64,000 bases of DNA. Source: Escherichia coli (GTDB taxonomy: Bacteria; Pseudomonadota; Gammaproteobacteria; Enterobacterales; Enterobacteriaceae). This document shows, in pieces, positions 22,663-25,600 of this stretch (the stretch's first letter is position 1; each line of letters starts with the position of its first letter). A program made the position numbers. The stretch lies in the NCBI RefSeq assembly GCF_044324875.1, contig NZ_CP172185.1. One strand, written 5' to 3'.

Positions 22663-25600
22663 TCAGCCCTTTCGCATACAGTGTGACGGTATGCTGATGG
22701 CGGGGACTGAGTTCACCGCTGGTGAGCATGAGCTCCAGCTGTTTCATCAGCAGCGGAAAAGCCTGGTCCAGGTGATACGCATCTGCGTCGCTGAACCGGC
22801 TTCTGATACCGGCCCGGTCTGCAAGGTAATGCAGGCGGTTACCCTCCTGCACCAGACGGGCACCAAAACAGGGCGTCACGGTGCAGGGCAGTCCCCACCA
22901 GGGGAGATTGTTATTGTCGTCGGGATGCGTTGTCCCGGTGAGTGTGTCTGACATGATAAATCCTCTGTGAAAGTGGGTTGAGGTGATGAGGTCAGCTGAA
23001 ATGATGTCCGGCTGCGGTGAAGGTGTATCCGTTGATGAGAAGCGCCTCATCCACGGCGTCGTCTGAGGTCAGCCAGTCGTACTCGTTTTCCAGTTGACTG
23101 TATAACCAGAAGGCCAGGTCCCGCAGGGCGTCACAGACAACGGTTTCTGCATCGGCTGTCATTGCCTGTCCGGTCGGACTGTTCCGGGTAACAGTGATAT
23201 CCATGCTGTACGGATGGCAGTAGTGTCCCCGGTGACTGATTTCAGCCTGTAACTGCCGGAAGTTACGTTTCTGCACCGCCTGCAGGGCATCCGCGATACG
23301 ATGAAGTTCATGGTCCTGCGGGGCATATTCCCGGATTTTCCTGGCTGTTGCCGGCTGCCAGTGCCAGCGTCCTTCAAAACAGGCTCCGTCCCCCTGGCTG
23401 CAGAATCCGCTGAACCAGATACACGGCTCTTCCATAAACCTGCCGCTGCTGAGCCGGATAACTCGCTGGCGGAGGACAATCCCGACAATCTCACAGACCG
23501 CCCTGAAGTCTTCATACACGTTTTCATACCAGCTGCTGTCAGCATGATGCTGACGGTACCAGTCACGGGCTTTTTCCCGTGCTGTGGCGGAAAGTTCATC
23601 CGGCGTATACACGGTGGTGGTGATAATTCTGCTCATCCGCATCTCCACTGACTCAGTTCAGGGTGACGCTCATCAGCCGGACATACGGGCCAAAACTGTC
23701 CTTGCGGCGTTCGGCAAACACGGCCAGTACGCCGGGGATATCCTGTACTTCACGACCGGTATACGCCTCAGTGCCGCCGTGCCAGCGGTACTTACCGGTG
23801 CAGAACGGAAAAAGACGGGATGACGGATACTGACGGTGAACGCGCATGGCTTCACCACGGGTGACGATTTTCATAGTGTGATACCTCATGAGGATGAGAG
23901 AGAGTAAAGGGCCGGATGACGATGACAGATATGTGGTTTGCTGTGATTTGTCGCAGAATTAAAGCAGGCCGTGTTCGGCAAAGGAGAACACCCGGCTGCC
24001 ACCGACTATCAGATGGTCCGGTACCCGGATATCCACCAGGGCCAGTGCCTGTACCAGCCGTTCCGTGATAAGCCGGTCAGCCTTACCGGGTGTGACTTCA
24101 CCGGACGGATGATTGTGCGCCAGCACCACGGCAGCGGCATTGTGGTACAGGGCGCGTTTAACCACCTCCCGGGGATGGACTTCCGTGCGGTTGATGGTGC
24201 CGGTGAAGAGGGTTTCACCGGCAATCAGCTGATTCTGGTTGTTCAGGTACAGCACCCGGAACTCTTCCCGCTCCAGTCCTGCCATGTGCAGAATCAGCCA
24301 TTCCCGTGCCGCATGCGTGGAGGTGAAGGCCACACCGGGTTCATGAAGATGGCGGTCCAGGGTTTTCAGGGCACGCTGAATGAGACTGCGCTCGCCGGGC
24401 GTCATCGCGCCGGGCAGAAAGGAAATCTGTTGCATAACCTCACCCCTCAGTCGATGATGCGAATAATGGCGCTGCATTCCGGATGCTGCAGGGCGTAATC
24501 CCGCAGCCGGTAATAATGGACCGTCATGGCATAATGCTCCGTACTGCAGGCGTGATGACTGTAGGCCATCAGACAGGCGGCAATGCCGGCGGCTTCCGGG
24601 CTCATTTCCGCGCGGTTACCGTTCATGGCGTTAAACAGCACCCATTTTTCGTCATCATCGTCACCCGGTTCGGGAGCCATAAATGCGCCGCCGTTGTTCA
24701 GGGTGTACATATTCCAGATACCCCCACTGTAGTCTTCACACAGACGGTCCATCCAGCCGAAGACACGGGGCTCCAGGGTCACCCACTGCGGAATGAGGCC
24801 AAAATGCTGCGGCCAGAAGCTGATGCGCTGTTCGTCAGGCACCGTGGTGGCAACCAGCTGAGGTGTATTATTCCCGGATGCAGTGGCTGCGGAAACAGAG
24901 TCATGCGAAACCGTTTTCATAAGTGAAATCCTTAAGTGAATAAGTGAATAAGTGAATAAGTGAATAAGTGAATAGATAAGAGAGAAAAGGCTGCGCCTCT
25001 CAGGCAGAAGGCATCAGCGCATACTCACCAGCAGCGTTTCCGCCATCACCCACAATGCACGATTGAGCTTAATGTCGGTGTCGATACTGTGAATGGCCCG
25101 GGTGTGGATACGTTTTCCTTTTGCGCTGCGTCCCTGAAGACCGCCTTTGAGCATATTCTCCTGGATGGTCTGATAAGCACTCCACAGGTCCCTGCCGTAA
25201 TCCTCCCGGCGTCGTGGTGTCAGAATGTCGGCGGTGGTGACGGGCTGATGTTCGTCACCATAACGGTAAGTCAGTGCCGCCTGTGCCAGCGCCTGACGAG
25301 CCGGTGGTGGTAAAATCAGCGACTGCATGGCATCACGCTTCTCCTCAATCCGGTCAAACACGCCCACAACCTCGTAAGCCCCTTCGATGACCCTGTCCAC
25401 CACGTTTCCCCGGTGCGGGACACGCACCTCTCCGAGAGACTGACCACAGACACATCCGTTCTGACACACGAACCGGAAGTAACCCGGCAGCATCTGGTAG
25501 CTGGAGGTACCGTCATGGGAGTTCAGCAGGATGATTTCAGGAACGTGCTGTCCGTTTATCTCCCCGTCACGGCGCAGACGCAGCATGTGCTTTGTGTATC

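Follow-up and report, generated by a model that had tools for sequence, protein, structure and literature searches.

The DNA analysed here is a window of 64,000 nucleotides from Escherichia coli (contig NZ_CP172185.1, assembly GCF_044324875.1), and its feature of interest is a tandem octanucleotide array lying immediately upstream of an antirestriction gene. This gene, ardB (24447-24920, minus strand), encodes a protein of 157 aa that matches Pfam family PF03230 (E=1.8e-36), the structure of ArdB in PDB entry 2WJ9 over residues 1-157, its full length (E=1.8e-93), and the KlcA structure 2KMG (E=4.4e-21). By these matches it is a member of the ArdB/KlcA antirestriction family. Upstream of it, also on the minus strand, lies a gene for a 272-aa DUF932 protein (25014-25832; PF06067, E=1.7e-51), which ends 93 nt before the ardB start. 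The array is located in this 93-nt gap.

Tandem Repeats Finder reports the array at 24933-24974, with a period of 8, 5.2 copies, 100% matches and the consensus TAAGTGAA. In the raw sequence it comprises five perfect units at 24933-24972, TAAGTGAA on the plus strand and (TTCACTTA)5 in gene sense; this is the part that varies, from three to nine units, in other strains. A probe made of three units matched nowhere in the window except inside the array, and had no match in 100 dinucleotide-preserving shuffles of the window. The five perfect octamers described in the first-pass annotation are thus confirmed. The same annotation had also mentioned degenerate flanking copies, a description that fits one side only. 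On the side of ardB the flanking copy is in fact a perfect unit: an isolated sixth TTCACTTA (24920-24927, minus strand), parted from the array by AGGAT in gene sense (ATCCT on the plus strand), whose final A is the A of the ardB start codon (TTCACTT-ATG). On the other side, TAGATAAG at 24973-24980 is a poor match to the unit, agreeing at four of eight positions.

Read in gene sense, the order from the array to the gene is TTCACTTA-AGGA-TTTCACTT-ATG. The start codon occupies 24920-24918, and 12 nt (24921-24932) separate it from the array. The Shine-Dalgarno (SD) sequence AAGGA (24929-24933, minus strand) borrows its first A from the final base of the array and ends 8 nt before the ATG. Upstream, a G-free pyrimidine-rich tract, CCTTTTCTCTCTTATCTA (24973-24990, minus strand), lies between the array and a hairpin. 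The array itself is 75% A/U and contains no G on the mRNA strand, and together with this tract it makes a G-free run of 59 nt on that strand (24932-24990), among the three longest runs in the window that lack one of the bases. The hairpin (24990-25018, minus strand) is a stem-loop in which the DUF932 stop codon (TGA, 25016-25014) is embedded, with CUUUUCUCUCUU behind it. This stem-loop folds, is retained in the centroid structure and is weakly terminator-like. A match found by the terminator scan at 25001-24985 reflects a weak pairing distinct from this stem-loop.

The number of units differs between strains. Units were counted by script in the window and in 20 public assemblies of E. coli that share its flanks; further loci were retrieved by exact-protein look-up with ArdB, the DUF932 protein, the ArdB variant of LH50-c and the 214-aa product of an open reading frame (ORF) found downstream of ardB. 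The window's ArdB allele is listed in 149 blocks of the protein index, from which the longest contigs were read. Arrays of three (four sources), four (four), five (eight, the window included), six (two) and nine units (three) were found. All are perfect, their flanks are identical, and so is the ArdB protein encoded downstream. Alleles of three, four, five and six units occur with no single-nucleotide polymorphism relative to the window in 800 bp on either side (1.6 kb in total), and when the array is removed from the comparison of five-unit with six-unit loci, or of five-unit with four-unit loci, no substitution is seen over the shared length, up to about 3.4 kb. Among the alleles seen, the length of the gap changes in steps of 8 nt, from 77 to 125 nt. 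The first-pass annotation had proposed that the array might be copy-number-variable and that its copies be compared across homologous islands; variable they are, and an invariant number, which it regarded as the outcome that would speak against its view, is not what we find.

The survey of complete genomes agrees. Of 5,426 complete E. coli genomes, 4,431 contain a DUF932-ardB junction, at 12,301 places altogether, and two, AR_0085 and LH50-c, contain the window's variant of it (at least 95% identity). The latter is 99.2% identical to the window across 4.7 kb. Both of these finished genomes have six units against five in the window, the gap being otherwise the same. A sister lineage carries an interrupted array, TTCACTTA TTTA/TTCA TTCACTTA TTTCCTTAA TTCACTTG TTCACTTA TTCACTTA, followed by AGGA. 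Here the gap measures 104 nt and is invariant in eight independent loci, and the interrupted lineage has the same span (562) in eight complete genomes.

These comparisons show that whole units of 8 bp are gained and lost by replication slippage at a far higher pace than that at which point mutations build up. The array is a slippage-prone pure octanucleotide microsatellite, that is, a variable-number tandem repeat (VNTR), because its length changes by whole units, changes rapidly and does so only where the array is pure. The sequence-level features examined for such a locus are all seen: perfect head-to-tail units beyond chance, whole-unit differences, and instability tied to purity. One might object that the array is an assembly artefact, draft assemblies having supplied most of the loci compared, or that the repeat arose by chance. 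We regard this as next to impossible. The shuffled sequences contain no match, the differences are exact multiples of 8 bp within perfect flanks, and both finished genomes have six units. At 24-72 bp the arrays are also below the typical length of a sequencing read; an assembly artefact is unlikely because the arrays are shorter than a read and the two finished genomes agree.

The leaders of paralogous islands suggest how the array may have originated. Those of O157, CT29, DJH_137urine, ECL27977, ESY001, AVS0935 and K-12 have no array, and their DUF932-ardB gaps range from 54 to 265 nt. Every paralogous leader compared has an A/T-rich, G-poor tract directly 5' of the SD, and AAGGA or TAAGGA is kept in most of them. 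The lineages nearest to that of the window carry the leader motif ...CATTTATTCACATTACAAGGA..., in the form CATTTATTCAC(A)TTAC-AAGGA, and K-12 yfjX carries TTTTTTATTCACGGAG, in the form TTTTTTATTCAC-GGAG. Evidently the lineage of the window amplified a leader motif that already existed, the ancestral A/U-rich TTATTCAC..TTA found just 5' of the ardB SD in several paralogous islands. The interrupted form in the sister lineage would represent an earlier step of this process, or else an older array that is decaying. A scan of genome contigs for three perfect units returned 58 stretches in Vibrio, Shewanella, Gastranaerophilales and other taxa, and none in Enterobacteriaceae; we rejected these as kin of the array, since they are chance microsatellites in unrelated taxa. 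A 30-mer spanning the last unit, the SD and the start codon had no match in metagenomes and none in viral contigs.

One further property of these leaders deserves mention. In K-12, the region upstream of yfjX/lfgA (L110, 587-616) contains a hairpin, CGCCAGCcatcgccGCTGGCG, that strongly resembles a terminator and has U6 behind it; it adjoins the lfgA SD on the 5' side and falls within the region reported as the leader or promoter of the lfg operon. This arrangement suggests that the antirestriction operon of K-12 may be controlled by attenuation or read-through. A hairpin and a U-rich tract before the SD are found in the window lineage and in K-12; the other paralogues fold unconvincingly.

Could the array serve as a binding site for a regulator? 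The first-pass annotation had raised the idea of an operator array. In such a model each 8-bp unit would bind a DNA-binding protein, for instance a ribbon-helix-helix repressor, so as to repress a promoter cooperatively. In its favor, identical 8-bp units stand in tandem beside a gene start, and the TTCAC core loosely resembles the omega heptad, WATCACW. The model nevertheless appears very improbable. The unit is not palindromic, and a period of 8 bp sets successive sites on differing faces of the helix. The copy number is unstable, from three to nine; units are degraded in the sister lineage and absent from O157, K-12 and other paralogues. A Pfam scan of 10 neighbouring ORFs (two of them without any match) revealed no DNA-binding domain, though a gene for a regulator may lie elsewhere. 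Finally, a consensus scan for sigma-70-type promoters detected none in 24400-26000, hence none spanning the array, where the best that can be found is a match at 7 of 12 positions, below the scan threshold. For want of a promoter, of symmetry and of conservation in paralogous islands, the operator proposal was not upheld.

The 7/12 match just mentioned comes from a relaxed promoter scan, the best results of which were TTCACA-16-TAAGCT (8/12, inside the DUF932 gene) and TTCACT-17-AAGGAT (7/12). The latter, at 24956-24928, would take its -35 element from the third-last unit and its -10 element from the presumed SD, with a spacer of 17 bp, and would yield a leaderless or near-leaderless ardB transcript. 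A weak promoter built from the units in this manner would need at least three of them, which is the size of the smallest allele observed, and it has the key -10 positions A2 and T6. It seems to us less probable still than an operator, since the match lies under the scan threshold, it is not conserved in most paralogues, and units beyond the third leave its geometry unchanged, so that an effect of copy number would go unexplained. A switch working through the length of a promoter spacer was considered separately and discarded on two counts: with a minimum of 24 bp the array by itself exceeds any promoter spacer in length, and a -35 element located within it stays equally far from downstream elements at any copy number.

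Nor does the array appear capable of altering the coding region. With the exception of a 4-codon mini-ORF at the DUF932 stop, the gap contains no ATG, GTG or TTG. There being no start codon through the array, no copy number extends ArdB at its N-terminus or creates an upstream ORF. On the plus strand no ORF crosses the array, stop codons being present in every frame. The SD-ATG spacing and the reading frame are independent of copy number; because all units are inserted upstream of the SD, copy number alters the length of the leader only.

At the RNA level, the array is unpaired in the minimum free energy and centroid structures and in folds modelled for n = 0-12. To open the region from the SD to +14, the model predicts an energy of 8.2 kcal/mol without any unit, 9.9 with three units and 10.4 with nine; accessibility of the ribosome-binding site (RBS), as computed in this model, is therefore flat across the natural range of three to nine copies. 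The best duplex that the array can form within the 4.7-kb operon transcript has an energy of -19.8 kcal/mol, against -19.6 +/- 2.3 for arrays of permuted units. No copy complementary to the array exists in the operon region, and two near-matches on the plus strand elsewhere in the window are at chance level. A switch based on RNA structure was consequently rejected (fold z-score 0.16, flat RBS opening energy, no specific pairing partner). The notion of a copy-number-variable switch, as opposed to that of a copy-number-variable array, thus receives no support: SD-ATG spacing, frame and predicted RBS accessibility are all unchanged, and there is no complementary RNA arm.

A subtler possibility is a rheostat, in which copy number sets the length of the leader and thereby tunes how strongly ardB, or the entire ardB-radC-cbeA-cbtA operon, is expressed. 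Two routes can be envisaged. Copy number could determine how much G-free, C-containing, unstructured RNA is on offer to Rho, and so modulate polarity, or to ribosome standby and S1 binding, and so modulate translation initiation. It could also shift the RBS relative to an upstream element, in distance and in helical phase. Such a contingency locus would fit with an array that is hypervariable, lies at the RBS, and is upstream of ardB on the same strand. The G-free run measures 59 nt in the five-unit allele; with three units it would shrink to 43 nt, and with nine it would reach 91 nt. This range spans the size commonly cited for Rho utilisation sites, about 70-80 nt, and also that of ribosome standby platforms. 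Repeat rheostats also have precedents in hmw1A, nadA and sabA. Moreover, the paralogous K-12 genes yfjX-yfjY-ypjJ-yfjZ-ypjF are described as a single operon (lfgABCDE) that begins at the antirestriction gene (PMC10846083), and ardB is likewise the first gene of its module. Against these points stand the flat predicted RBS accessibility for n of at least 3, the lack of an hmw-like hairpin partner, and the fact that neither a promoter, in the consensus and relaxed sigma-70 scans, nor any other upstream element was identified. Furthermore, the array decays in sister lineages that retain the gene, and paralogues work with gaps of 54-265 nt that contain no array. On balance, the sequence makes tuning by copy number an unlikely proposition, albeit a less remote one than an operator or a promoter made of units.

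The reading that we favor, and consider probable on present sequence comparisons, is that the array is a length polymorphism with no role as a switch or an operator. It would be a young, pure octanucleotide microsatellite in the untranslated DUF932-ardB gap of a CP4-57-like genomic island. If transcribed, as we infer, in leader or intercistronic RNA, it would serve as an unstructured spacer, devoid of G, that separates the RBS from the stem-loop at the DUF932 stop. Any effect of copy number on expression of the ardB operon is expected to be at most graded, and probably small, because SD-ATG geometry, frame and accessibility are unaffected and because paralogues span gaps of 54-265 nt.

Several observations weigh against this reading. 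All the three-unit loci checked for context share a DUF905 gene upstream, and alleles partly cluster by lineage. If termination at the hairpin behind DUF932 were efficient, an ardB promoter would be required inside the gap that bears the array. The position of the array is itself unusual, since it abuts the RBS of a gene that takes part in the conflict with host restriction, and another hypervariable octamer occurs in the same window. To a specialist in contingency loci, this placement and the other octamer would hint at selection for mutability.

The second array, (TCACTCTA)x5, is also perfect and lies at 40199-40240, 15 kb from the first. It is found in an AT-rich, G-poor, non-coding gap of 1.56 kb (39424-40985), between a DUF3987/YfjI gene (37621-39423, plus strand) on its 5' side and a YagK/YfjJ (Gp2-like) gene (40986-41552, plus strand) on its 3' side. 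LH50-c has 11 units of this repeat, within flanks otherwise identical to those of the window; other assemblies encoding the identical downstream protein have 3, 4, 4, 9, 10 and 10. On the sense strand of the genes beside them neither octamer contains a G, and the two share a TCACT core. We dismissed this core as a common binding motif, its estimated chance probability, about 0.1-0.2, not being significant. The same gap contains, at 40019-40129 and just 3' of the DUF3987 gene, imperfect tandem repeats of 23 bp (x2.9) and 21 bp (x2.7), whose arrangement looks like that of replication-origin iterons.

One could envision that (TTCACTTA)n at the ardB RBS and (TCACTCTA)n are two octanucleotide contingency loci, at which slippage would stochastically tune the expression of antirestriction and toxin-antitoxin genes, and perhaps also the replication or regulation of the island; one route would be Rho loading that depends on the length of the G-free leader RNA. 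We hold this to be rather improbable. E. coli is generally regarded as being without contingency loci made of simple sequence repeats. Were the two-locus proposal correct, it would amount to repeat-based bet-hedging in E. coli.

The module to which ardB belongs has the order GTPase, DUF932, ardB, radC-like, DUF987, 214-aa ORF, cbeA and cbtA, in which ardB is the first gene of the segment ardB - radC-like - DUF987 - 214-aa ORF - cbeA - cbtA. It is a conserved accessory module of E. coli islands of the CP4-57/CP4-44/CP4-6 type. The RadC-like JAB-domain gene directly 3' of ardB (23959-24435, minus strand) is the homologue of K-12 yfjY/lfgB. An exact-protein look-up with the GTPase of the window yielded no record. 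A strong intrinsic-terminator-like hairpin, CGCGTCTTCCCCGGGAGACGCG, followed by GCTTTTT, lies at 25885-25906 on the minus strand, between the GTPase gene and DUF932; because of it, DUF932 and ardB may be transcribed separately from the GTPase gene. At the other end of the module, directly after cbtA, the window has an IS21-family element (20394-22195; a 340-aa IstA-like and a 260-aa IstB-like ORF) in the position occupied by DUF5983 and DUF4942 genes in related islands.

Other mobile functions are spread over the window. A tyrosine integrase of P4 type (Arm-DNA-bind_3, Phage_int_M and Phage_integrase domains) is encoded at 14828-16093 on the minus strand. ARAGORN detected no tRNA gene in the whole window, and the attachment site of the island was therefore not identified. 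An element encoding a 548-aa protein (rve and Mu-transposase C-terminal domains) and a 332-aa ORF is present in three copies, at 705-3123, 29233-31651 and 62892-63890. Two of these copies have at one end 23-bp tandem repeats (x4.3; ATGCCAAACCGTGATCGATTCG), at 3115-3237 and 31643-31765, which could be multiple transposase-binding sites. The sole Rfam match at the gathering threshold in the whole window is an ALIL pseudoknot (RF01497, 116 bits; 33631-33747), the frameshift signal of an IS3-family insertion sequence; there is none near the array.

Whichever interpretation prevails, the alleles of 3, 4, 5, 6 and 9 units with identical flanks constitute a natural allelic series, and thereby a ready-made experiment. 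If the array is a neutral VNTR, it would provide, together with the second octamer array, a fast length marker for telling apart very close E. coli strains that bear the island. If copy number does tune expression, it would represent a rare repeat-based rheostat in E. coli, placed at the first gene of a mobile module combining antirestriction and toxin-antitoxin functions, and would connect the hypermutability of repeats with the way in which mobile elements become established in a new host.

These properties invite comparison with several known systems. The G-free (ATCTTTC)n repeats in the 5' untranslated region of Haemophilus influenzae hmw1A and hmw2A make expression inversely proportional to copy number; they base-pair with a G-rich arm, the resulting long hairpin is cleaved by RNase III, and their natural alleles have at least 11 repeats (PMC12721329). 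The array described here shares with them a G-free, pyrimidine-rich unit, a length that is not a multiple of three, a location on the sense strand before the start codon, and variable copies. In contrast, it has no complementary arm and its alleles comprise three to nine units. For lack of such an arm, the hmw1A mechanism, in which repeat and G-rich arm form an RNase III substrate, was ruled out for this array. In Neisseria meningitidis nadA, with its (TAAA)n repeat, and in Helicobacter pylori sabA, with its T-tract, the length of an upstream repeat is said to alter spacing or phase and so give a graded output; these repeats reportedly lie upstream of mapped promoters with a defined regulator (NadR, IHF) or RNA-polymerase contacts, whereas near the present array no promoter or flanking operator was found.

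Head-to-tail units of 7-8 bp beside a gene start are also reminiscent of MetJ metboxes and of omega-repressor heptads. Metboxes are 8 bp long and are present in two to five copies; they are palindromic, lie over promoters and are fixed in number per operon. The TTCACTTA unit, on the other hand, is not palindromic, its number is unstable, paralogues do without the array, and no cognate regulator was seen in the 10 ORFs. Another parallel is offered by AU-rich leaders to which ribosomal protein S1 binds and which function in translational enhancement or ribosome standby. The array may correspond to them in that it is an unstructured tract immediately before the SD, 75% A/U and free of G, and in that all paralogous ardB leaders have a comparable tract. 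Leaders of that class are not normally tandem or length-polymorphic.

Lastly, the array may be set beside the VNTRs used for E. coli multiple-locus VNTR analysis (MLVA), in which loci with units of 6-9 bp serve for typing of O157 and of E. coli in general. The searchable literature contains no paper with the repeat sequence TTCACTTA, and no relevant one joining VNTR and antirestriction. The present locus differs from those of MLVA type in that the lineage bearing it is rare, as the two occurrences among 5,426 complete genomes attest. It resembles them in its short non-coding units, in whole-unit differences between strains that are made by slippage, and in an island- or prophage-like location.

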